IMG/VR virus record: IMGVR_UViG_3300005563_000030
Location: 32,001-96,000 of that record
Reading direction: 5' to 3' (one strand)
From: a virus
DNA: 64,000 nt
Under the pieces are notes generated by a model. It did no database searches and had not been told where the DNA came from. It saw only the letters and a program-made list of their open reading frames with translations. Of the stretch, positions 13,057 to 50,117 are shown piece after piece (the stretch's first letter is position 1; each line of letters opens with the position of its first letter). Both the position numbers and the translations under genes were made by a program.

Positions 13057-16000
13057 TTATCGTTCTACCAGCTTAGTTCCATCAAAATAAAGAGTCTTAC
13101 CAGTCTTTCTATTATAATAAGATTTACCTGCTTGTACATTCTGAACACCACCTGCGGCAGTAGTTTTAGCACTACCAACTGTTGTTGGAGTTGTAGGCAT
13201 TCCCAAGGCAGGATTAACACTAAATAAAGGCTGATAACCATTATAGTCTCCGTATTGATCGAAGGCTCTTGAATATTTCATTATAAGGTTACCATTTCTA
13301 TTAAGAGCTCTATTGTCTGCAATAGTCTTATATAAAGCATCAAGTGATGTAAGTTTCTGTTCTTGTTGAGTAGCTTTAGACTGAAGAACTTTATTCTCAA
13401 ATACTTCACGTGCTTGCTGGTCTGCTAAAGAATTCTTATCTCTTACTTGTGTGTTGTAAGTGATTTCATTATTCTTAATCTGAGCATTTTGGTTCTCGTA
13501 GTTACCTAACACTTGATTATTAGCAGCGTACTTCTGAGCAGCCAAGTTAGCAACATTAGCGGCAGCTCCACCGGGATTATTTGCGGACATGTCTTGCACG
13601 CCTTGTACACTTGCATTAAAGTCAGCTTGGTTCTGTTGTAAAGCAGCAGTAGGATCAAGTAACTTGTAACGTAACTGGTTGAACTCCATTGGGTTATATT
13701 TACCCGGTTCACGCTCTAAAGCAGCTAAATATGAGTTAGTTGCAGAAGCAGTATCATACCAGCGTAAAGGCTCATAAAATCCACTTCTTTTTTGTTGTTT
13801 AATATTTATTGGAGTAATGCTGGTATCTAAGTCTTGAGCAACTGGAATATCCTTCGCCGGGGTATCATCAGGCCATGTGATTGTAGGCTTCTTATCAGGA
13901 GCTACAAGACGCATAGTTCTAGGTCCAAGAATACCATCAGGGTATAGTGTTTTTAACTTCTCAAGGTTCTTAGGATCATCTAATACACCAGGTTTGAAAA
14001 GACCTTTATCATCTACAAGTCCCATTTGTCTAGCTTGAGTCATGCCTTTCTGGTGCATACCTTCACCCCACATCTTTCTAATAGCATCAGGGTTATTTTT
14101 TAACTGATAGTCATACAAGGCTGTCTGGAAATCAGCAGCATTATTAATTCCTTCATACTTAAATCCTTTTGCTTTCAGTTCGTCTAAGTAGTTTTGGAAT
14201 GTAAAGTCCTGAGTAGCAGGGAATGCGTCAGAGTGACCAGCAGGAGTTTTCATACCTGTTTTGGACCCTGCATAACCAGCAAGTTGCATGTACTGTGGTT
14301 CTGTTGTATCTACACCATATTGAGCATGATGCCATTTAGCAGCATTACGTGCAAAGTTAGCCATCTGTCTAACATGGGGATCTTTCGAGTGAAGAGCTTC
14401 CTCAGTAGTTTTACCTGTTCTCTTCTTATAAGCAGTAAATTTACCTCTGTTCTCAGGCTTGATATGAATACCTGTTTTAGCTTCAGGAGTATCTTGTCCA
14501 TCTGTAGGAATACCTGTCGCAGCTTTAACCATTTCTTGACGGTTAAATAAACTATCAAATAATTGTTGCTGTGTAGGTAGAGATTTAAAATGATCCATAT
14601 TTAATCTAGTTGAAAGTTCAGCGTATTTGTCTAATGAGTCTCTACTCTTAGCGCCTAATTCTATTTTCTTTGTTATTTTATTTCTTTGGTCTTCGTAGTA
14701 ATCATTAGCGTTAACTAACGCTTCTGCGTGAGACATAGCCTTATTAGTAGGCATACCAGTTGTCTGCTCTACATCCTCAGGACTAAGTTTTAAGATTTTA
14801 GAATTTCTATCCTTTCTTATATTAGATGTATTCTCAAGTACACGATGTACATTAGGAAGAAATACTCCACCCTGTTCATGTGTATTAGCATCATTAGCTA
14901 CTTGTCCAATCTGACCATCATTTGTTTGAAAAGCTTCACCCTTTTCAGCTTCTACATTAGCAAGAGCCTTTCCACCTTCTTGTAAGCCATATGTTTTAGG
15001 CATTCCACCATTTTTCATAACATTTTTATTAGGAATAGTGAAATTAGATGGTCTTATTGATAAGTCTCCTGTTTCTGCAATATCTACATTTTGTGTAGCT
15101 GGATTGTACTTATAATCTCTACTATAACTAGTTCCTCTAGTTGTATTAGTTTGAGTATAACTAGGTGTTACTTGTAATGATGCAAAGCGTCTACCATAGT
15201 TTAACTTTGTAACATCATTCTGTCCTTCTTCAGTACCCCATAGAGGCTGTCTTCCTTGTGATACGTTGTAGTTGTTCACAGCCTGAAGACTTTTTAAATA
15301 ACGATCATAATCATCACCTAAAGTACTCTTTACTTCATCAGGTGTTAAGAAATCATTATACGCTGTACTTTGTACATAATTTTGCGCACCAGTTGTGTCA
15401 CCTTTACGTCTCAAATCAACAAGTCCTTTAAAGTAATCTTGAAATCCTTGTGGGTTTTTTGCTTTGAGTTGAGCGTTCAACTTATCTTTAAAGTATGCTA
15501 ATTGAGCGTTTGCTGAATAATATTGATCTGTTGGGTCTGGAGCTGGCGTGGAGTTAGCAGCTAATTGTCCACCAGTTTGCATTGTTCTATAACCTGCTGC
15601 GGTTCCAGTATTTGGTGTTTCTGAGGAAGATACTCCTGATAACGCACCAGAGTTTAGGAATCCTTGCCACGCACCTTTATTAGGAAAGTAAACGCTTTGT
15701 TGTCCTGAACCTGTTGGATAGGTAGCAGAAAAGTTAGTAGGTTGATTGAGATCCATTGGAGTATACCCATTATCTGGAATAGCTATATCATACCCACTTC
15801 TAAGAGTAGTCATAGGCATTAAATCTACACTACCAATATGTCGAACATCTCTATCACGAAATGTGCCTATTTGTTGAATTATTTTCTCTTTGTTATCCCA
15901 AGGAATGCGCCCTTGACTGTCTTTTACAGAAACAGCATTCAAATATCTATCGCCTTTAACTCCAGTTGTGTGTACATATTTTCCTGTACCTCCACCGTAT

Positions 16001-44316: not shown

Positions 44317-44329
44317 TGGTTTTTATTTG

Positions 44330-44401
44330 AGCACATAGGAAGAATCGAACTTCCGCATAACTGTTTTGCAGACAGCGACCTTACCACTTGGCTATACGTG
44401 C
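44330..44401 (-). tRNA. trnC: tRNA-Cys(GCA)
   Basis: Cloverleaf; CTGT-CTGCAAA-ACAG anticodon arm; GTTCGATT T-loop. Confidence 0.85.
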
Positions 44402-44760
44402 TTATTTACGAATAGCTTTTTCTTAATAACATAATCGAATATCTTCTCATTTATAAATCCTGATAAGAAGGCTCTAGCTTCTCCATCATTTACATCCTTA
44501 TCTTCTAATATGTAATCTACTAAATGAGAAATTTCATGAGTTATTATATTTACATTTAAACTCTCTTCTGAAAAGAAGACATAGTAGGTATGAAAATTAT
44601 TTGGATTTATAGCCATTCCATGAAGATCATGGTCATCTTCTATATTAAATTCCCATTTCTCTCGCTTACTATATGAGTTTATCTTCTTACGAATGTCTTT
44701 GTCTATTATGACAATACACTTAAGTTGATAAACTTCTATCGGAATCACTAGTCTGAGCAT
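44392..44760 (-). CDS. Small zincin-like HExxH protein
   Basis: IITHEISH...GEARA; stop codon lies inside tRNA-Cys. Confidence 0.6.
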   Translation of the reverse strand: MLRLVIPIEVYQLKCIVIIDKDIRKKINSYSKREKWEFNIEDDHDLHGMAINPNNFHTYYVFFSEESLNVNIITHEISHLVDYILEDKDVNDGEARAFLSGFINEKIFDYVIKKKLFVNKHV

Positions 44761-44914
44761 CTTCTGATAAGTCTAAGATCATGAATTTATAACTTTCCAA
44801 AGGATACTTTGATTCTTCTTTAGGTTCACCAAATATAGCCTTTCTTGATTCAGGACTCATAAGTTCATAGAATAACCCCATAATTGCAGCCTGATCGTAT
44901 ATCTCTTCTTCCAT
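44720..44914 (-). CDS. Hypothetical protein
   Basis: ORF track. Confidence 0.4.
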   Translation of the reverse strand: MEEEIYDQAAIMGLFYELMSPESRKAIFGEPKEESKYPLESYKFMILDLSEDAQTSDSDRSLST

Positions 44915-44927
44915 GTAATTAGTTAAG

Positions 44928-45001
44928 TTGCGGGAGCGGGGATCGAACCCGCGTCATTTAGCTTATGAGACTAAGCTGGAACCTCTCCAGTCCACCCCGC
45001 A
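44928..45001 (-). tRNA. trnM: tRNA-Met(CAT)
   Basis: TTAGT-CTCATAA-GCTAA arm; GGTTCGATCC T-arm. Confidence 0.8.
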
Positions 45002-45005
45002 ATTT

Positions 45006-45218
45006 TTAATCTTCTAAATATTCTCTCCAAGTCTTCGGTTTGTATCTATCTATTGCTTCATCATTACGTTTCTTGAACTCCTCAGCAGAAATAATACCTA
45101 GCCGAAATCCCCATTCAACATTAGTGAGATACATATCTCTCATTAACATCTTCTCTTTGTTCTTTATGTGTGCTTGGGTCATCATAAAGAGTATATCGTA
45201 CTCCACTTTCTTTTCCAA
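45006..45218 (-). CDS. Hypothetical protein
   Basis: ORF track. Confidence 0.45.
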   Translation of the reverse strand: MEKKVEYDILFMMTQAHIKNKEKMLMRDMYLTNVEWGFRLGIISAEEFKKRNDEAIDRYKPKTWREYLED

Positions 45219-45363
45219 TTTCTTCTTGTAACATCATTTCTAAGAACCTCATTGCGTCATTGTACCTCGCAGTGAGTTGTTCAATAATATAATTCTCAGA
45301 CATACCTAAAGCTCTCCAATTATCAATTTCGTCTTGTAGGTAGTGGTTAACAATATTATTCAT
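45121..45363 (-). CDS. Hypothetical protein
   Basis: ORF track. Confidence 0.4.
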   Translation of the reverse strand: MNNIVNHYLQDEIDNWRALGMSENYIIEQLTARYNDAMRFLEMMLQEEIGKESGVRYTLYDDPSTHKEQREDVNERYVSH

Positions 45364-45577
45364 CTTCCTTAATATTATCTACTAACTCGTTCTCTAATTC
45401 ATCGCGATATTTCTCAAACTTCCTCAAAAGCTCTGTATCACTCCAGCCGTAACATCCTGTTTGTGGGCGAAGAATATGTACCATATGTTGCGCAATGGTA
45501 TACTGAGGAAACAATTCCACGATCTCTGCAAAGTTATGGAATATCTGTGACTTTGTCTGAATCTGTTTGTTGCTCAT
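45356..45577 (-). CDS. Hypothetical protein
   Basis: ORF track. Confidence 0.5.
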   Translation of the reverse strand: MSNKQIQTKSQIFHNFAEIVELFPQYTIAQHMVHILRPQTGCYGWSDTELLRKFEKYRDELENELVDNIKEDE

Positions 45578-45989
45578 TTTCTTGGTTTTTAAATGCGAAC
45601 CATTTAGGTTCCAGTGTTATATTGTTTTTTGTGTTGTACTCTTTTACGTTTGGTTTTGCACATCCGCATTCTGTTCCCGGATTGCAACATGATAATCCAC
45701 AATCTGATGATAATGATGATGTTTTTCTATTAATTGAACATCCACACATAACGCAATGCTCATCAATTCTGTTTGTTATATACCCATCACTAACTGCATT
45801 CGAGCTGCTGAACGGGCACGTCGAGCATATCAGTCTTCTCCTCACTATCTCCTGTTGTTCTTCCTCTGGTAACATCCCCAACTCGTTCTTCACTTGTGTT
45901 ATTGTCGCTTCCAAGATTGCTGGTGCGTTGCTCACTATTGTCGGCAGCAACGTCACGTACTCTACTAATCCTTTTAGTGTAATTTTCAT
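45534..45989 (-). CDS. Cys-rich putative zinc-binding protein
   Basis: RRLICSTCPF...HCVMCGC motifs. Confidence 0.55.
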   Translation of the reverse strand: MKITLKGLVEYVTLLPTIVSNAPAILEATITQVKNELGMLPEEEQQEIVRRRLICSTCPFSSSNAVSDGYITNRIDEHCVMCGCSINRKTSSLSSDCGLSCCNPGTECGCAKPNVKEYNTKNNITLEPKWFAFKNQENEQQTDSDKVTDIP

Positions 45990-46323
45990 AGAACTGTTTA
46001 GCTAATATATTTCTTTGTTTAAGAGCTTTTCTTAGCTTATCATAGTTTAATTCCAGAAGCAATTCAGTTGTTGATTGCTTATATCTGGTAGATTTTCGGA
46101 TATTCCTTATCTTTCTAATAAGAGTAATAATCATCTGGTCTACTTTACGCTTAGAAACTGTTATAGTTCCAATATGCTTAATAGAAACAGATGTATAGTC
46201 CATAGATGATAGAGCAGCTCTCACGCCAACCTTCCAGAAAAAAGCATTTACATCTTCTACAAGGTCAGGATCAAGGTTATTCTCTCTAGCTACCAACTTA
46301 GAAACTATATGAATATCCTTCAT
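45790..46323 (-). CDS. HU/IHF-like protein
   Basis: Helix-helix followed by VSIKHIGTITV strand pattern; crAss position near terminase. Confidence 0.5.
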   Translation of the reverse strand: MKDIHIVSKLVARENNLDPDLVEDVNAFFWKVGVRAALSSMDYTSVSIKHIGTITVSKRKVDQMIITLIRKIRNIRKSTRYKQSTTELLLELNYDKLRKALKQRNILAKQFYENYTKRISRVRDVAADNSEQRTSNLGSDNNTSEERVGDVTRGRTTGDSEEKTDMLDVPVQQLECS

Positions 46324-46664
46324 TAATTATTATCAATTTTAATAAGAACTCCCATAGTTGGAGTAAGCCCAAAGTCTAACTCTTTTCTAAGTGAGTATTC
46401 TTTACTGTCTACATTTCTAATCAGCATTCCAAATTTCTTCAACTTAGATAGAGTATTTTTAAGACTATCATCAGACTTTAGTATACCTGCATTTAGTATA
46501 AGGTCTTTAGTTTTTCTATTGATCTTATAAACCATAAAATATGCAAGTACTGTTAACTCTGTGTCTGAGAGCTTAACATTCATAAGTAAACAGAAGATAT
46601 TAATTAATACCTTAGCTTGTTCTACTTTACTATTGGTTTTCTTTTTTATCTTTACTAGTTGCAT
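46323..46664 (-). CDS. Winged-HTH (RepL-like) protein
   Basis: LSDTELTVLAY...SLKNTLSKLKKFGML pattern; ATG 46664 follows the TATATTTG promoter at 46673-46680. Confidence 0.5.
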   Translation of the reverse strand: MQLVKIKKKTNSKVEQAKVLINIFCLLMNVKLSDTELTVLAYFMVYKINRKTKDLILNAGILKSDDSLKNTLSKLKKFGMLIRNVDSKEYSLRKELDFGLTPTMGVLIKIDNN

Positions 46665-46875
46665 ATTCAGTACAAATATAGAGATATTATTGCAATTTAC
46701 CAAATTTATTTTATCTCCATCCCTTCTTCTCCAGAACTTTCTATTAGCTGCTCTCGCGAACAACGAATAGTAGGTGAGTCACTGAGCGTTACACTTCTGC
46801 TGCTCCGCGAAGTACGAAGCTACGAAAAATTTCTGACATTTTCATCAATTTCGTAAACTATTTTTTAAAATAAAT

Positions 46876-46898
46876 AAAAAAGCCCCAATTAAGGGGCT
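46876..46898 (-). terminator. Terminator closing tRNA operon 3
   Basis: AGCCCC-TTAATT-GGGGCT followed by TTTTT. Confidence 0.8.
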
Positions 46899-46902
46899 AT
46901 TG

Positions 46903-46974
46903 CACGGGATGATGGTCTCGAACCACCGACACAGGTTTTGGAGACTAGCATTTTACCAACTAAACTAATCCCGT
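46903..46974 (-). tRNA. trnW: tRNA-Trp(CCA), anticodon stem with two mismatches
   Basis: CTAGT-CTCCAAA-ACCTG; good acceptor, D and T arms. Confidence 0.7.
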
Positions 46975-46978
46975 AGGT

Positions 46979-47070
46979 AGCCTGCGTAATAAGATACTTT
47001 TCGCGTAGTCCCAGGTTTACGCTTGAAGGGTCAGGTAAATCCCACATATCTCCTATACTATTCTCAGGCT
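46979..47070 (-). ncRNA. Rod-shaped ~92-nt non-tRNA RNA inside tRNA operon 3
   Basis: AGCCUG/CAGGCU closing stem, AGAUA/UAUCU, UGUGG/CUACG and UUUAC/GUAAA helices separated by bulges. Confidence 0.45.
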
Positions 47071-47071
47071 C

Positions 47072-47142
47072 TGGGTGAAGTGCAGGATCGAACTGCTTCT
47101 CCAGCTTCACATGCTAGCGCTTTTCCAGTAAGCTATCTTCAC
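47072..47142 (-). tRNA. trnH: tRNA-His(GTG)
   Basis: CTAGC-ATGTGAA-GCTGG arm. Confidence 0.75.
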
Positions 47143-47144
47143 AG

Positions 47145-47215
47145 ATGCTCGTGATCGAATCGGACGACCTTCTCCGAGGTCAAAACTCGGTGTGATACCA
47201 ATATACCAACGAGCA
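47145..47215 (-). tRNA. trnQ: tRNA-Gln(TTG)
   Basis: CCGAG-TTTTGAC-CTCGG arm; atypical T-arm. Confidence 0.7.
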
Positions 47216-47223
47216 TTATATAG

Positions 47224-47296
47224 TGGGGTTCTCTGGTTACGATCCAGATCCTCCAGTTTTTCAGACTGGTGCTTCTACCAAGTTAGCTTGAACTCC
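47224..47296 (-). tRNA. trnF: tRNA-Phe(GAA)
   Basis: CCAGT-CTGAAAA-ACTGG arm. Confidence 0.85.
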
Positions 47297-47301
47297 AAAT
47301 G

Positions 47302-47375
47302 AGCCTGTGGTCGGAGTTGAACCGACAACCTTTCCCTTACAAGGGGACTGCTCCGCCAATTGAGCTACAGCAGGC
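47302..47375 (-). tRNA. trnT: tRNA-Thr(TGT)
   Basis: GTCCC-CTTGTAA-GGGAA arm. Confidence 0.8.
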
Positions 47376-47379
47376 ATTG

Positions 47380-47478
47380 TGCTAATGGGGTACGACTTGA
47401 ACGACAAGCGGAGGTTAATCCCTGATTCCGCGCCGGATAGACAATCCGGTATGTCTGCCAATTTCACCACCCATTAGT
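47380..47478 (-). tRNA. Atypical tRNA-like RNA: GTC (Asp) anticodon, long variable arm, 8-bp acceptor stem
   Basis: CCGGA-TTGTCTA-TCCGG arm; CTAATGGG/CCCATTAG acceptor; GGTGAAATTGGCAGAC D region; GCGGA...TCCGC variable arm. Confidence 0.6.
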
Positions 47479-47481
47479 GTG

Positions 47482-47553
47482 CGGGAACGGAAGGGGTCGA
47501 ACCTTCAACCTACCGGTTAACAGCCGGTTGCTCTACCATTGAGCTACATTCCC
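47482..47553 (-). tRNA. trnN: tRNA-Asn(GTT)
   Basis: ACCGG-CTGTTAA-CCGGT arm. Confidence 0.9.
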
Positions 47554-47605
47554 TGGTCGGCTCCGATTTTTTATACAGAACGTTGCCGAAGTAAACTGTT
47601 GATCG

Positions 47606-47681
47606 CCGACTATCACGGATTTGAACCGAGGATCTCCTCTTAGACAGAGAGGCAGGGACGACCAGACTCCCCTAATAGTCG
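47606..47681 (-). tRNA. trnD: tRNA-Asp(GTC)
   Basis: CCTCT-CTGTCTA-AGAGG arm (U at position 37). Confidence 0.8.
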
Positions 47682-47722
47682 AGGTGAAGGTTCCTTCCTG
47701 GAGTATACCTACAACTATGCAG

Positions 47723-47797
47723 TCAGGGTAGCTGGATTTGAACCAGCGAACACGTGCTTCCAAGGCACGCCCATATAGCCATCTGTGGAACACCCTG
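47723..47797 (-). tRNA. trnP: tRNA-Pro(TGG)
   Basis: CGTGC-CTTGGAA-GCACG arm. Confidence 0.85.
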
Positions 47798-47802
47798 ATA
47801 AT

Positions 47803-47832
47803 AAAAAACCCCCGGTGAAAACCGAGGGAAAC
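47803..47832 (-). terminator. Attenuator terminator of tRNA operon 3
   Basis: CCCTCGGT-TTTC-ACCGGGGG followed by TTTTTT; 5' arm also complementary to leader GATGAGGGAAC. Confidence 0.8.
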
Positions 47833-47858
47833 TTTCAATTATGACAAATTTTCTTGAA

Positions 47859-47945
47859 TTACTTATTTTGGCATAATGTTCCCTCATCGAGATCTTGTTG
47901 ATCCGGTGTGAAATTATTAAACGTATTATGCCAATTGTTAATCAT
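47859..47945 (-). CDS. Leader peptide 3, MINNWHNTFNNFTPDQQDLDEGTLCQNK
   Basis: Translated by hand; lies between promoter TATCTTTG (47950-47957) and the attenuator. Confidence 0.75.
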   Translation of the reverse strand: MINNWHNTFNNFTPDQQDLDEGTLCQNK

Positions 47946-47949
47946 AAAA

Positions 47950-47980
47950 CAAAGATAAGTAAAATATTTGAAACTACCAA
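47950..47980 (-). promoter_or_regulatory. Bacteroidota promoter for tRNA operon 3
   Basis: TTTG about 20 nt upstream of TATCTTTG. Confidence 0.75.
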
Positions 47981-47996
47981 ATATTCTTAAAAGAAG

Positions 47997-48080
47997 TCGA
48001 TGCAGAGAGATTTGAACTCCCATAGCCGAATGGCGACAGTTTTACAGACTGCTGATTTCAACCCACTTACCATTACATCG
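47997..48080 (-). tRNA. trnY: tRNA-Tyr(GTA)
   Basis: GCAGT-CTGTAAA-ACTGT arm; long variable arm. Confidence 0.8.
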
Positions 48081-48149
48081 AGATAGCTGTCTATTCCAGC
48101 TTGTCAAACCCTTTTTATTTCATACTACGTCGCCGAGATACACGACCTG

Positions 48150-48238
48150 CGGAAAGAAGAGGAACCGACCCCCACCCGATTTAACGAGACCTAGTTTTCA
48201 AGACTAGTCGGCGCTCCAATGCACCTGCTTTTCTTTCC
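48150..48238 (-). tRNA. trnS: tRNA-Ser(TGA)
   Basis: CTAGT-CTTGAAA-ACTAG arm; long variable arm; GGA...TCCG acceptor; atypical T-loop. Confidence 0.75.
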
Positions 48239-48242
48239 AGAG

Positions 48243-48328
48243 CGGAGAACAGTGGCCCTGATCCACATACGTTCGATGACGTACCACCTCTTTAGCAGAG
48301 AGGGCATACCCTAGTATGTCTATTCTCC
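48243..48328 (-). tRNA. trnS: tRNA-Ser(GCT)
   Basis: CCTCT-CTGCTAA-AGAGG arm; long variable arm; atypical T-loop. Confidence 0.75.
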
Positions 48329-48333
48329 AAATG

Positions 48334-48407
48334 TACTCCTAGTCAGATTTGAACTGACACTTGACAGATTTTAAGTCTGTTGACTCTCCCTGTTGGTCTA
48401 TAGGAGC
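48334..48407 (-). tRNA. trnL: tRNA-Leu(TAA), short variable arm
   Basis: ACAGA-CTTAAAA-TCTGT arm. Confidence 0.8.
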
Positions 48408-48483
48408 TGGTAGCTACGGTGAGATTTGAACTCACACTAAATAGTTTCTAAGACTATTGCCTCTCCCATTGGGCTACGTAGCC
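48408..48483 (-). tRNA. trnL: tRNA-Leu(TAG), short variable arm, encoded CCA
   Basis: ATAGT-CTTAGAA-ACTAT arm. Confidence 0.8.
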
Positions 48484-48490
48484 ATAAAAT

Positions 48491-48522
48491 AAAAAACCCC
48501 CACTTATGAATAAGCAGGGGGT
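48491..48522 (-). terminator. Attenuator terminator of tRNA operon 2
   Basis: ACCCCCTGCTTA-TTCA-TAAGTGGGGGT followed by TTTTT; 5' arm complementary to leader GCAGGGGG. Confidence 0.8.
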
Positions 48523-48547
48523 AAACTAAAAACGGAAAAAAGTATCT

Positions 48548-48631
48548 TTATATTCCGACAATAAGCCCCCCTGCCACAGGATAACTGAGACTAGATAAAT
48601 AGGAGAGTAAATATTGCTTCACGAATTTCAT
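48548..48631 (-). CDS. Leader peptide 2, MKFVKQYLLSYLSSLSYPVAGGLIVGI
   Basis: Translated by hand; lies between promoter TATCTTCG (48636-48643) and the attenuator. Confidence 0.75.
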   Translation of the reverse strand: MKFVKQYLLSYLSSLSYPVAGGLIVGI

Positions 48632-48635
48632 AACA

Positions 48636-48658
48636 CGAAGATAGGAAAACTTTTTCAA
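48636..48658 (-). promoter_or_regulatory. Bacteroidota-type promoter for tRNA operon 2
   Basis: TATCTTCG (one mismatch to TAnnTTTG) with upstream TTG. Confidence 0.6.
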
Positions 48659-48801
48659 TTTTCCAAATTTTCATTTATTGAATAAGTACGATCACATAAA
48701 TCGCAGTAATAAACTGGTCCTAGATTTTCTCCGAACACTCCAATCTCATCTATAATTATGAATTGTTCATTACATTCAGGACATCTGTTTTCTGATTTCA
48801 T
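48655..48801 (-). CDS. Small zinc-ribbon protein (48 aa)
   Basis: MKSENRCPECNE...YYCDLCD; true start follows tRNA-Ala. Confidence 0.55.
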   Translation of the reverse strand: MKSENRCPECNEQFIIIDEIGVFGENLGPVYYCDLCDRTYSINENLEN

Positions 48802-48803
48802 AG

Positions 48804-48873
48804 TGGACACAGTGGGAATCGAACCCAAAAGTTCTCCTTGCAAGGGAGACTGCCTACCGTTGGCATCTGGCCC
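48804..48873 (-). tRNA. trnA: tRNA-Ala(TGC)
   Basis: TCTCC-CTTGCAA-GGAGA arm; G3:U70. Confidence 0.75.
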
Positions 48874-48878
48874 AGAAG

Positions 48879-48951
48879 TAGGAAGTCTGAGAATCGAACT
48901 CAGGAGTCCACTTTGTAAGAGTGGCATATTAAACCTCTGTATGAACTTCCT
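48879..48951 (-). tRNA. trnV: tRNA-Val(TAC)
   Basis: CCACT-CTTACAA-AGTGG arm. Confidence 0.8.
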
Positions 48952-48954
48952 ATG

Positions 48955-49027
48955 TCGCTGAGGGAAGAGTCGAACTTCCAGTCTTACACGTATCAGGCGT
49001 CTGCGTTAACCATTACGCTACTCAGCG
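48955..49027 (-). tRNA. trnI: tRNA-Ile(GAT)
   Basis: ACGC-CTGATAC-GTGT arm. Confidence 0.8.
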
Positions 49028-49029
49028 GG

Positions 49030-49101
49030 TTGGCTCTAAGGGGGTTGAACCCTTATCCTTCTCGTTATGAGCGAGCTGCTCCACCTTTGAGCTAAGAGCC
49101 G
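49030..49101 (-). tRNA. tRNA with CAT anticodon, probably Ile2 (lysidine)
   Basis: CTCG-CTCATAA-CGAG arm; Ile2-like CTTAGCTCA 5' region; next to tRNA-Ile; leader 1 contains an ATA codon. Confidence 0.7.
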
Positions 49102-49106
49102 ATATG

Positions 49107-49178
49107 TACTCTCGAAGGGTTTCGATCCCTCTTCTACACCTTGAAAGGGTGTCATCCTAGCCACTAGACGACGAGAGC
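49107..49178 (-). tRNA. trnE: tRNA-Glu(TTC)
   Basis: ACACC-CTTTCAA-GGTGT arm. Confidence 0.85.
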
Positions 49179-49227
49179 TGGTGTACAGACTATCACTGAC
49201 CTTGGTAACTGACTTTCACAGATTTTG

Positions 49228-49298
49228 TGCGCTACTGGGGAGTCGAACCCCACCCCTCTGATTGGAAGTCAGATAGACTACCGAAATCCTTGTAACGC
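49228..49298 (-). tRNA. trnG: tRNA-Gly(TCC)
   Basis: TCTGA-CTTCCAA-TCAGA arm. Confidence 0.8.
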
Positions 49299-49305
49299 AT
49301 ATAAG

Positions 49306-49378
49306 AAGAGCTGGAGGGATTCAAACCCCCGACGTTCTGTTTAGAAAACAGACATTCTGTTCCCTGAATTACAGCTCT
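49306..49378 (-). tRNA. trnR: tRNA-Arg(TCT)
   Basis: TCTGT-TTTCTAA-ACAGA arm. Confidence 0.75.
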
Positions 49379-49379
49379 G

Positions 49380-49453
49380 AGGACTAGGAGCGAGTCGAAC
49401 GCTCATGTTCCCGCTTCGTAGGCGGGAGCTCTATCCAGTTAAGCTACCAGTCC
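49380..49453 (-). tRNA. trnR: tRNA-Arg(ACG)
   Basis: CCCGC-CTACGAA-GCGGG arm. Confidence 0.85.
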
Positions 49454-49462
49454 TTATTTATG

Positions 49463-49533
49463 TACCCCCGCACGGTAACGATCCGTGTTCTACTGGTTAA
49501 AAGCCAGTAGCTTCACCTTAAAGCTTCGAGGGT
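49463..49533 (-). tRNA. trnK: tRNA-Lys(TTT)
   Basis: ACTGG-CTTTTAA-CCAGT arm. Confidence 0.8.
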
Positions 49534-49535
49534 AT

Positions 49536-49576
49536 AAAAACCAAAACCCCCAAGCTTCTTTAAGGCTCAGGGGTTC
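49536..49576 (-). terminator. Attenuator terminator of tRNA operon 1
   Basis: CCCCTGAGC...GCTTGGGGG followed by TTTTGGTTTTT; 5' arm GAACCCCTGAGCC complementary to leader GGCTCAGGTGGTTC. Confidence 0.8.
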
Positions 49577-49604
49577 GATGTTATGACACACATTAATTAA
49601 GTCA

Positions 49605-49682
49605 TTAGCAAATAGAACCACCTGAGCCACATTTGACAATGCGCTCTGCTCCTCTACCCGCTATAATGACTAATAAACTCAT
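49605..49682 (-). CDS. Leader peptide 1, MSLLVIIAGRGAERIVKCGSGGSIC
   Basis: Translated by hand; lies between promoter TATATTTG (49700-49707) and the attenuator. Confidence 0.75.
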   Translation of the reverse strand: MSLLVIIAGRGAERIVKCGSGGSIC

Positions 49683-49699
49683 TTCTTTAAATTATAATA

Positions 49700-49724
49700 C
49701 AAATATACGAAAACTTTTTTACAA
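49700..49724 (-). promoter_or_regulatory. Bacteroidota promoter for tRNA operon 1
   Basis: TATATTTG with upstream TTG. Confidence 0.7.
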
Positions 49725-50117
49725 TTCCAAATCTTCTTCATCACCTTCTATACTTTCGTCTTCAGGAATGTCATCTTCATAATCCAAAGGTGTGCAATCC
49801 ATAATCTGTACACCCATTTGTTCCATATACAATTCCATGAAATCTGAGAAACCTGCTTTTACTATTAAAGAACTCTCAGCCTTTCTGAAATGAATTGTGA
49901 CATGATCCTTTTCTTTAGCTCTATTAAAGTGATGAATATCTTTTAAATCAAATACTACAGGACCATATTCATGCACAATATCCATCATAATCATGCTATC
50001 TTCTGGACCTTCATCTCCATTAATGAGACGGTTTAATTCTGCTTCTTCCCGGTTAGCTTGACTATTACGAGGAGCAAGCTCCGACCATCTCGCTAACATT
50101 TTTACAATTGTACTCAT
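49719..50117 (-). CDS. Hypothetical protein with acidic C-terminus
   Basis: ORF track. Confidence 0.55.
   Translation of the reverse strand: MSTIVKMLARWSELAPRNSQANREEAELNRLINGDEGPEDSMIMMDIVHEYGPVVFDLKDIHHFNRAKEKDHVTIHFRKAESSLIVKAGFSDFMELYMEQMGVQIMDCTPLDYEDDIPEDESIEGDEEDLEL

Follow-up and report, generated by a model that had tools for sequence, protein, structure and literature searches.

It is common to regard the tRNA arrays of phages as patches for codon usage that are expressed constitutively, and we know of little on how phages control their own tRNA genes. The window, that is, the whole stretch of 64,000 nucleotides that was analysed, is part of a virus record of 125,101 bases with an estimated completeness of 81%, and carries a tRNA array at positions 44329-49533 on the minus strand. 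Directly ahead of this array, between the end of a gene for a 132-amino-acid protein (49719) and the start of tRNA-Lys (49533), lies a short ORF, and the question raised by the locus is what such an ORF does at the head of a set of tRNA genes. The sequence there holds the parts by which an attenuator is recognized: a short 5' ORF, a run of codons cognate to the tRNAs downstream, an intrinsic terminator and a mutually exclusive antiterminator. Probably, the element attenuates transcription by way of a leader peptide and its ribosome, and so controls entry into a phage tRNA operon that is referred to below as unit 1.

The leader of unit 1 and its codon run

The features of the leader and of the genes that it would regulate are as follows.

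49731-49700, minus strand: predicted promoter of unit 1, Bacteroidota sigma-A type (TTTG at 49731-49728, a 20-nt spacer, and TAnnTTTG at 49707-49700)
49682-49605, minus strand: leader ORF, 25 codons and a TAA stop
49670-49632, minus strand: regulatory codon run, codons 5-17 (Val twice, Ile three times, Ala twice, Gly twice, Arg twice, Glu and Lys, and no other amino acid)
49533-48805, minus strand: regulated unit 1, with Lys(ttt), Arg(acg), Arg(tct), Gly(tcc), Glu(ttc), a CAT tRNA, Ile(gat), Val(tac) and Ala(tgc)

The ORF begins 17 nt past the promoter motif and ends 71 nt ahead of the first tRNA, and the nine tRNAs of unit 1 follow the leader without a long gap. ARAGORN at its default settings reports 23 tRNA genes in the array of the window; Rfam adds one at 48804-48873, read as Ala(tgc) by ARAGORN with relaxed thresholds, which also adds Ser(tga) at 48149-48234. 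The Ala(tgc) gene of unit 1 is thus detected by Rfam and relaxed ARAGORN only. Over the whole window, Rfam gives only tRNA matches at the gathering score, and when matches at E up to 10 are admitted for 49534-49760, no leader family or T-box appears except for a Pseudomonas rnk leader at 14.5 bits (gathering score 55).

The promoter motif overlaps the stop codon of the upstream 132-amino-acid gene. TAnnTTTG is described as the sigma-A box of Flavobacterium, located at -12 to -5, in a paper that also describes clues to leader-peptide attenuation upstream of Flavobacterium amino-acid operons (PMC9723704). With a gap of 17 nt between motif and ATG, transcription of unit 1 is predicted to start near 49695, which would leave a 5' UTR of 13 nt.

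Read at 49682-49605, the ORF has exactly the codons 5-17 listed in the initial annotation, including AGA, CGC, ATT and ATA. The run covers all seven amino acids of the unit-1 tRNAs, and it does so with two codons for Arg (AGA and CGC) and two for Ile (ATT and ATA), which match Arg(tct) and Arg(acg), and Ile(gat) and the CAT tRNA, respectively. A strictly cognate codon is present for eight of the nine tRNAs if ATA is counted for the CAT tRNA, a count that assumes this tRNA to be Ile2. Extended U34 wobble is required for Val GTC, which occurs twice, and for Gly GGT; the other Gly codon, GGA, is strictly cognate.

Taken alone, the unit-1 leader is moderately significant and not compelling, as a six-frame scan of the whole 125-kb genome (250,198 codons) suggests. 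The run of 13 codons is the second longest that is built from its seven amino acids; the longest, of 15 codons, lies inside a real protein. By a looser measure, the matching fraction over 17 codons, 19 of 5000 random windows equal the unit-1 leader. Because its amino-acid set is large and common (34% of six-frame codons), this leader is by itself the weakest of the three that are present in the window.

Sister units and relatives

Two further units of the same build follow on the same strand.

48667-48497, minus strand: sister attenuator 2 (promoter motif 48667-48636, ATG 48631, ORF 48631-48548, terminator 48520-48497)
48483-47996, minus strand: tRNAs of sister unit 2, Leu(tag), Leu(taa), Ser(gct), Ser(tga) and Tyr(gta)
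47981-47809, minus strand: sister attenuator 3 (promoter motif 47981-47950, ATG 47945, ORF 47945-47859, terminator 47828-47809)
47797-46902, minus strand: tRNAs of sister unit 3, Pro, Asp, Asn, Asp, Thr, Phe, Gln, His and Trp

The ORF of sister 2 has a run of 11 codons for Leu, Ser and Tyr only, and that of sister 3 a run of 16 codons that includes all eight amino acids of its own unit and nothing else; in both, the ATG is placed as in a leaderless mRNA. Genome-wide, the former is the longest run made of Leu, Ser and Tyr, and it lies directly upstream of the Leu/Leu/Ser/Ser/Tyr block. The latter is the longest run for Pro, Asp, Asn, Thr, Phe, Gln, His and Trp (the next best has 11 codons), and it too lies directly upstream of the tRNA block that it matches.

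Relatives of the phage were reached by way of its terminase, because the 132-amino-acid protein had no relatives in phage records or viral contigs. The terminase places the phage among the relatives of crAss-like and Cellulophaga/Flavobacterium phages, the best cultured match being phage Lbo-JY46 (44.6% identity), and searches guided by it gave one close and several distant viral contigs together with 80 metagenome loci. A near-identity DNA search of the phage collection returned no match, and four DNA runs left the leader uncovered by independent samples and offered no useful variants. About 17 of the 90 fetched loci of relatives hold at least three tRNAs on the right strand, the remainder being uninformative. 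Leaders were detected without regard to composition, as an ATG-initiated ORF of 15-61 codons with a hairpin and T-run 18-70 nt past its stop and a tRNA within 215 nt. After two loci were dropped as identical to others (L006 to L004, and L012 to L002), the survey comprised 27 leaders at 14 distinct loci. At one locus, L033, a second leader was missed and two units were merged; its leader is left out of the Arg, amino-acid and frame counts and is still among the 27.

Across this set, the composition of each leader follows the tRNAs of its own unit. The longest matching run has a mean of 11.8 codons against the own unit and 2.1 against other units of the same genome, and the matching fraction over codons 2-18 is 0.69 and 0.13, respectively. 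The own unit scores best for 20 of 21 leaders, the exception arising because the unit-2 ORF of L002 was given an in-frame ATG further upstream as its start. Amino acids of the unit are present in leader codons 2-18 in 151 of 158 instances (26 leaders, L033 excluded). The match at the level of isoacceptors claimed in the initial annotation, already visible in unit 1, is borne out in the relatives, where the Arg codon box corresponds to the Arg anticodon of the own unit in 17 of 19 cases; the relatives being homologous, these counts and the Fisher test are not to be read as independent events. The distance from stop codon to T-run lies between 45 and 68 nt in all 27 leaders.

The correspondence is also kept where tRNA genes are found in different units. 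Asp and Asn tRNAs, together with their codons, belong to unit 3 in the window, L002 and L004, and to unit 1 in L003 and L007. Arg(acg) and CGY codons are in unit 1 in the window, L002 and L004, and in unit 3 in L003 and L007, in which Arg(tct) and AGA stay in unit 1. The same two loci have Cys tRNAs in unit 1, and the leaders there carry six (L003) and five (L007) Cys codons. Loci at a greater distance have very different sets of tRNAs, again with leaders to match; L038, for example, has a run of 22 codons that covers a unit of 13 amino acids, and L032 a run of 17 codons. Some leaders match poorly: the longest run in L023 is of three codons, and L083 and one leader of L078 have fractions of 0.41-0.47. 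Cellulophaga phage phi17:2, the host of which is known and the terminase of which is 28.7% identical, has three such units with other assortments of tRNAs. All 11 run codons of its first unit are strictly cognate to the seven downstream tRNAs, both Leu isoacceptors included; this phage was read by eye and with ARAGORN and stands outside the statistics of the 27 leaders. Considered together, the unit-1 leader, its two sister units and the relatives form a pattern that, judged from the sequences, is far beyond chance.

A promoter motif is found upstream of 21 of the 27 leaders when the last two letters of the -7 box are relaxed; the background rate of one per 14,751 nt in the fetched loci was counted for the strict motif only. 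The ATG lies 4-8 nt past the motif in 14 of the 27 leaders, the mRNAs of which would be leaderless; a gap of 4 nt would make the A of the ATG the first nucleotide of the mRNA. The type of promoter and the hosts of the relatives point to a host in Bacteroidota, and to transcription by the polymerase of that host.

The relatives also bear on the CAT tRNA of unit 1, for which the initial annotation saw in the ATA codon an independent hint of an Ile2 identity. The window has two CAT tRNAs, one in unit 1 (49027-49102) and one standing alone (44927-45001), and these are different species. The solo gene is Met-like, has a CAT anticodon loop misparsed by ARAGORN, and resembles the solo CAT tRNAs of L002 and L004. 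Six leaders of the unit-1 type belong to units in which Ile(gat) is accompanied by a CAT or TAT tRNA. Every one of the six contains ATA, and the two tRNA genes are adjacent in five of these units; in L007, it is a TAT tRNA that fills the slot before Ile(gat). The link between ATA and the CAT tRNA, and the presence of a separate Met-like CAT tRNA, thus agree with that proposal; the identity of the unit-1 CAT tRNA as Ile2 (a lysidine-containing CAU anticodon, modified by TilS, that reads ATA) is plausible and falls short of proof.

Antiterminator, terminator and competing explanations

The second half of the element is formed by RNA segments that could pair in alternative ways, segment 1 being the codon run itself.

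49628-49614, minus strand: segment 2, antiterminator strand, at ORF codons 19-23 (ORF nt 55-69), the best upstream partner of the terminator 5' arm
49577-49565, minus strand: segment 3, terminator 5' arm and also the partner of segment 2 (from folding and covariation)
49555-49534, minus strand: segment 4, terminator 3' arm (49555-49544) and T-rich tail (49543-49534)

The predicted terminator has 12 pairs (49576-49565 with 49555-49544) and starts 28 nt after the ORF. Its stem ends 10 nt ahead of tRNA-Lys, and the T-rich tail, which is broken by two G residues (GG), reaches to just before the tRNA. The antiterminator strand and the terminator 5' arm had been placed by the initial annotation at 49628-49615 and 49576-49564, and both were recovered there: the duplex of segments 2 and 3 has a predicted energy of -20.8 to -21.0 kcal/mol, a value reached by none of 300 dinucleotide shuffles of the upstream RNA and by none of 26 pairs in which leader and arm were swapped. 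When the RNA is left untranslated, segment 2 pairs instead with segment 1 in a long hairpin at about 49678-49592. The full unit-1 leader folds into this long ORF hairpin and the terminator at -51.4 kcal/mol (z = -3.94), with none of 200 shuffles as good.

A similar arrangement is predicted in the relatives. At most four of 300 shuffles are as good as the antiterminator duplex in 12 of the first 15 leaders, and in 22 of 27 the terminator 5' arm has its best partner around codons 16-25. Over the 27 leaders, the own duplex has a mean of -13.5 kcal/mol, as against -8.7 for swapped pairs; the own pair of leader and arm is better than all 26 swaps in 10 of the 27, and is among the best three in 17. 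Alignment of the unit-1 leaders shows an antiterminator core of eight pairs that is intact in the window, L004 and L002. In this alignment, window position 49569 would have 49623 as its antiterminator partner and 49551 as its terminator partner, and all three differ in L002 with both helices kept; 49572 behaves likewise in L004 with its partners 49619 and 49548. The alternative pairing proposed for unit 1 is thereby upheld, both by its conserved place in the ORF and by compensatory changes that include these two three-way covariations.

Equilibrium folding with a ribosome footprint, meant as the main test, gave mixed results. For the unit-1 leader, the probability of the terminator is 0.89 at the outset; placing the A site at codons 5-7 or 9-14 lowers it to 0.01-0.52, codon 8 gives 0.73, and at later codons the value is 0.89 again. 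Among 15 full-length leaders, such a dip goes below 0.5 during the run in only eight, unit 1 included; in the other seven the terminator stays dominant. Because equilibrium folding backs only eight of 15 leaders, the structural case leans on positional conservation, swap controls and covariation. When the unit-1 transcript is cut before the 3' arm, segments 2 and 3 pair with a probability of 1.00 as long as the A site is at codons 2-14; a ribosome over segment 2 brings this down to 0.20-0.54. Such a drop is seen in all 15 truncated leaders, a result that is partly true by construction. In 10 of these 15, the antiterminator forms even without a ribosome, which is a difference from the trp model. 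Since the terminator is dominant at equilibrium in seven of 15 leaders, the switch would have to be kinetic, as in classical systems, and termination in many members may need a ribosome that crosses segment 2. A ribosome stalled at codons 15-17 of the run (Ile, Val and Lys) would cover part of segment 2; owing to this closeness, sensing of Lys by unit 1 is doubtful.

The seven leaders without a switch at equilibrium, and the 10 in which the antiterminator is free of the need for a ribosome, also suit another explanation, namely that the unit is functional and reads tRNA supply by a different route or with the opposite sign, for example through protection from Rho or RNase, through processing of the precursor, or by stalling that favours termination. 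This is unlikely. The complementarity between codons 19-23 and the terminator arm is conserved in position, beats swaps and shuffles, and is kept by three-way covariation; a choice between antiterminator and terminator predicts such complementarity, and the other routes need none. The run, moreover, lies upstream of segment 2, so that a stall there would free segment 2.

That the hairpin merely ends the 132-amino-acid gene or a short transcript, and that the 25-codon ORF is a chance frame, would be in keeping with the common amino-acid set of unit 1, with the random windows that equal it and with the longer run inside a protein. Against this stand the separate promoter motif between the 132-amino-acid gene and the ORF, the recurrence of the build three times in the window and in 27 leaders at 14 loci, and a composition that tracks the tRNAs in the reading frame: the other two frames of the same DNA have matching fractions of 0.31 and 0.33, and the reverse complement 0.23, with frame 0 best in 24 of 26 leaders. 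A chance frame is thus very improbable. The conserved position of the ORF could equally be expected of micro-proteins with a function of their own, independent of the codons used, and some of these ORFs are annotated as hypothetical proteins in phi17:2 (gp077). The peptide sequence, however, drifts among the relatives and is not conserved, composition follows the tRNA set of the own unit, and ORF lengths range from 19 to 42 codons, all of which makes a micro-protein hard to credit. A degenerate tRNA or other small structured RNA over the ORF, suggested by the good folding of the region and by a weak tRNA-Leu(caa) that ARAGORN reports at 49599-49671 with thresholds at 85%, is rejected, because a search of 49534-49760 at E up to 10 yields no match to the tRNA covariance model (RF00005) and leaves every other family well short of its threshold, default ARAGORN and Rfam at the gathering score are blank there, and the equivalent leaders of L002, L003, L004 and L007 lack such an ARAGORN call.

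A proposed circuit and its place among known systems

In the attenuator that is favoured here, host RNA polymerase would start at the promoter of Bacteroidota sigma-A type about 13 nt ahead of the leader ATG, and a ribosome would translate the 25-codon leader as the polymerase advances. When decoding is fast, the ribosome would be on segment 2 at the time that the terminator is made, or would have passed it with segment 2 paired again to segment 1; segments 3 and 4 would then form the terminator, and transcription would stop 10 nt ahead of tRNA-Lys. When charged tRNA is scarce for Arg (AGA), Arg (CGC), Ile (ATT), Ile (ATA), Ala, Gly, Glu or Val, the ribosome would stall in the run and leave segment 2 free to pair with the terminator 5' arm, which would let the polymerase continue into all nine tRNA genes. 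Since the tRNAs so made are those that read the run, their supply would be held in check by negative feedback. That the ORF is translated, that transcription terminates, which way the switch works and what triggers it physiologically are deduced from sequence; the trigger could be a codon-usage mismatch, decay or cleavage of host tRNAs, or amino-acid starvation. A bolder and more tentative proposal, to which we lean less than halfway, is that the leaders act as multiplexed sensors of the tRNA pool at the level of isoacceptors, such that each operon carries an inventory of its tRNAs and is expressed only if one of these decoders runs short. On this bolder view, phages could detect and repair depletion of host tRNAs unit by unit, whether caused by anticodon nucleases, host shut-off or codon mismatch, and ambiguous tRNAs (CAT as Ile2) could be assigned from the text of the leader. 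The way in which large phages of Bacteroidota control their tRNA genes would then follow a general principle that has yet to be published.

The closest counterparts are the attenuators of enterobacteria, in which a single amino acid is sensed by the trp, his, leu and phe leaders, and several by the multivalent leaders of ilvGMEDA (Ile, Val and Leu codons) and thr (Thr and Ile codons). Shared with the phage element are a short ORF with a regulatory run, an intrinsic terminator before the regulated genes, and a strand in or just past the ORF that pairs with the terminator 5' arm, so that a stall upstream favours read-through; the multivalent leaders also share the sensing of more than one amino acid by one leader. 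Enterobacterial leaders, on the other hand, control biosynthetic enzymes, whereas the phage element would control tRNAs, so that the molecule sensed and the product are of the same class and the loop is direct. Enterobacterial runs are repeats of one to three amino acids, whereas phage runs sample up to 13, usually with each tRNA of the unit represented at least once. The phage element differs further in being carried by a phage, in its Bacteroidota-type promoters, in the many mRNAs that are predicted to be leaderless, and in having no match to the leader families of Rfam. T-box riboswitches, which control aminoacyl-tRNA synthetase and amino-acid genes, bind uncharged tRNA through a specifier codon and the T-box sequence without a ribosome. 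They have in common with the phage element a leader in cis that couples tRNA status to the choice between terminator and antiterminator; they differ in the direct binding of uncharged tRNA and the dispensability of the ribosome, and no T-box is matched here.

The general principle of leader-peptide attenuation is set out in PMC1183508. As described in a mycobacterial study (bioRxiv 10.1101/834739), leaderless short ORFs encoding polycysteine act as Cys-responsive attenuators; as in the phage element, the operon opens with a short leaderless ORF whose codon content couples downstream expression to the speed of decoding. By that account, the mycobacterial ORFs sense one amino acid and belong to cellular Cys-related operons, whereas the phage element has phage tRNA genes as its target. 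Anabaena PCC 7120 is described as having a long and silent tRNA array, the trn operon, that is induced under translational stress (PMC8421152, PMC10272220) and controlled by the RHH repressor TrcR (PMC10272220). This is the nearest published case in the literature searched, and it shares with the phage element an accessory set of tRNA genes that is turned on by impaired translation; as these papers present it, the Anabaena array differs in being cellular, plasmid-borne and under a repressor, and a term search of the text of PMC8421152 gave no occurrence of attenuat-, leader peptide or terminator. Two candidate precedents were discarded. An attenuator-like leader at E. coli pheV was dropped, since about 105 nt of upstream sequence in K-12 hold no leader ORF or terminator, and in PMC3082878 'tRNA operon' is used in another sense. 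No description of the control of tRNA genes by a leader peptide was found in the literature searched.

The phage elements are best read as classical attenuation newly applied to tRNA operons; what would be new are the tRNA targets, a text of one codon per tRNA, the phage setting and an often leaderless start. If this reading is true, it would be the first case found of tRNA genes controlled by the decoding speed of their own codons, in a direct homeostatic loop. It would explain why tRNA genes are grouped in fixed blocks, would make it possible to predict from sequence which tRNAs are transcribed together and what ambiguous anticodons read, and would provide a testable link between phage tRNA arrays and host defences that target tRNAs. 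Two cultured phages, Cellulophaga phage phi17:2 and phage Lbo-JY46, carry the element and make it directly testable.

Minor features of the minus-strand tRNA array

Two tRNA genes of the array are missed by ARAGORN at its default settings, namely tRNA-Ala(tgc), which closes the first unit and is recovered as an Rfam match, and tRNA-Ser(tga), which is seen only at relaxed thresholds. Among the relatives, several tRNAs (Lys, His, Arg(acg) and Trp) also escape the default settings. These two genes and two further features, all on the minus strand, lie in the window as follows.

48805-48873, minus: tRNA-Ala(tgc)
48655-48801, minus: ORF of 48 aa bearing two zinc-ribbon-like Cys-x-x-Cys pairs
48149-48234, minus: tRNA-Ser(tga)
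47381-47476, minus: second tRNA-Asp(gtc), 96 nt

The 48-aa ORF lies between the first and second units; its start directly adjoins the 3' end of tRNA-Ala, and its final codons overlap the promoter motif of the second attenuator. The second tRNA-Asp(gtc) greatly exceeds the length of a class I tRNA. For the solo tRNA at 44927-45001 (minus strand), ARAGORN returns a two-letter, unreadable anticodon; in the alignment its CAT anticodon loop is normal, and the tRNA clusters with the solo, Met-like CAT tRNAs of two relatives' loci (L002 and L004).

Promoter motif across the genome

In its strict form (TTTG, 18–22 nt, TAnnTTTG), the promoter motif occurs 17 times in total on the two strands of the 125-kb genome, split six versus 11 between them, and it may flag a gene set transcribed by the host polymerase.

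Annotation of related phages

The tRNA leaders of phage Lbo-JY46 (PP438436.1, 1800-6260) are preceded by promoter motifs of the Bacteroidota type, and the recorded host assignment, which is cyanobacterial, may be worth re-checking. The hosts of its terminase relatives are Bacteroidota. Gene insertions, including an annotated homing endonuclease, split the first tRNA unit of this phage.

Three sites are concerned in Cellulophaga phage phi17:2 (NC_021798.1, 13335-13436, 14969-15041 and 15258-15377), one of which is an unannotated tRNA gene.

14969-15041: tRNA-Lys(ttt)

In the same phage, a tRNA-Ser(tga) called by relaxed ARAGORN is overlapped by the annotated CDS gp078, and in the second tRNA unit the leader ORF is the annotated CDS gp077.
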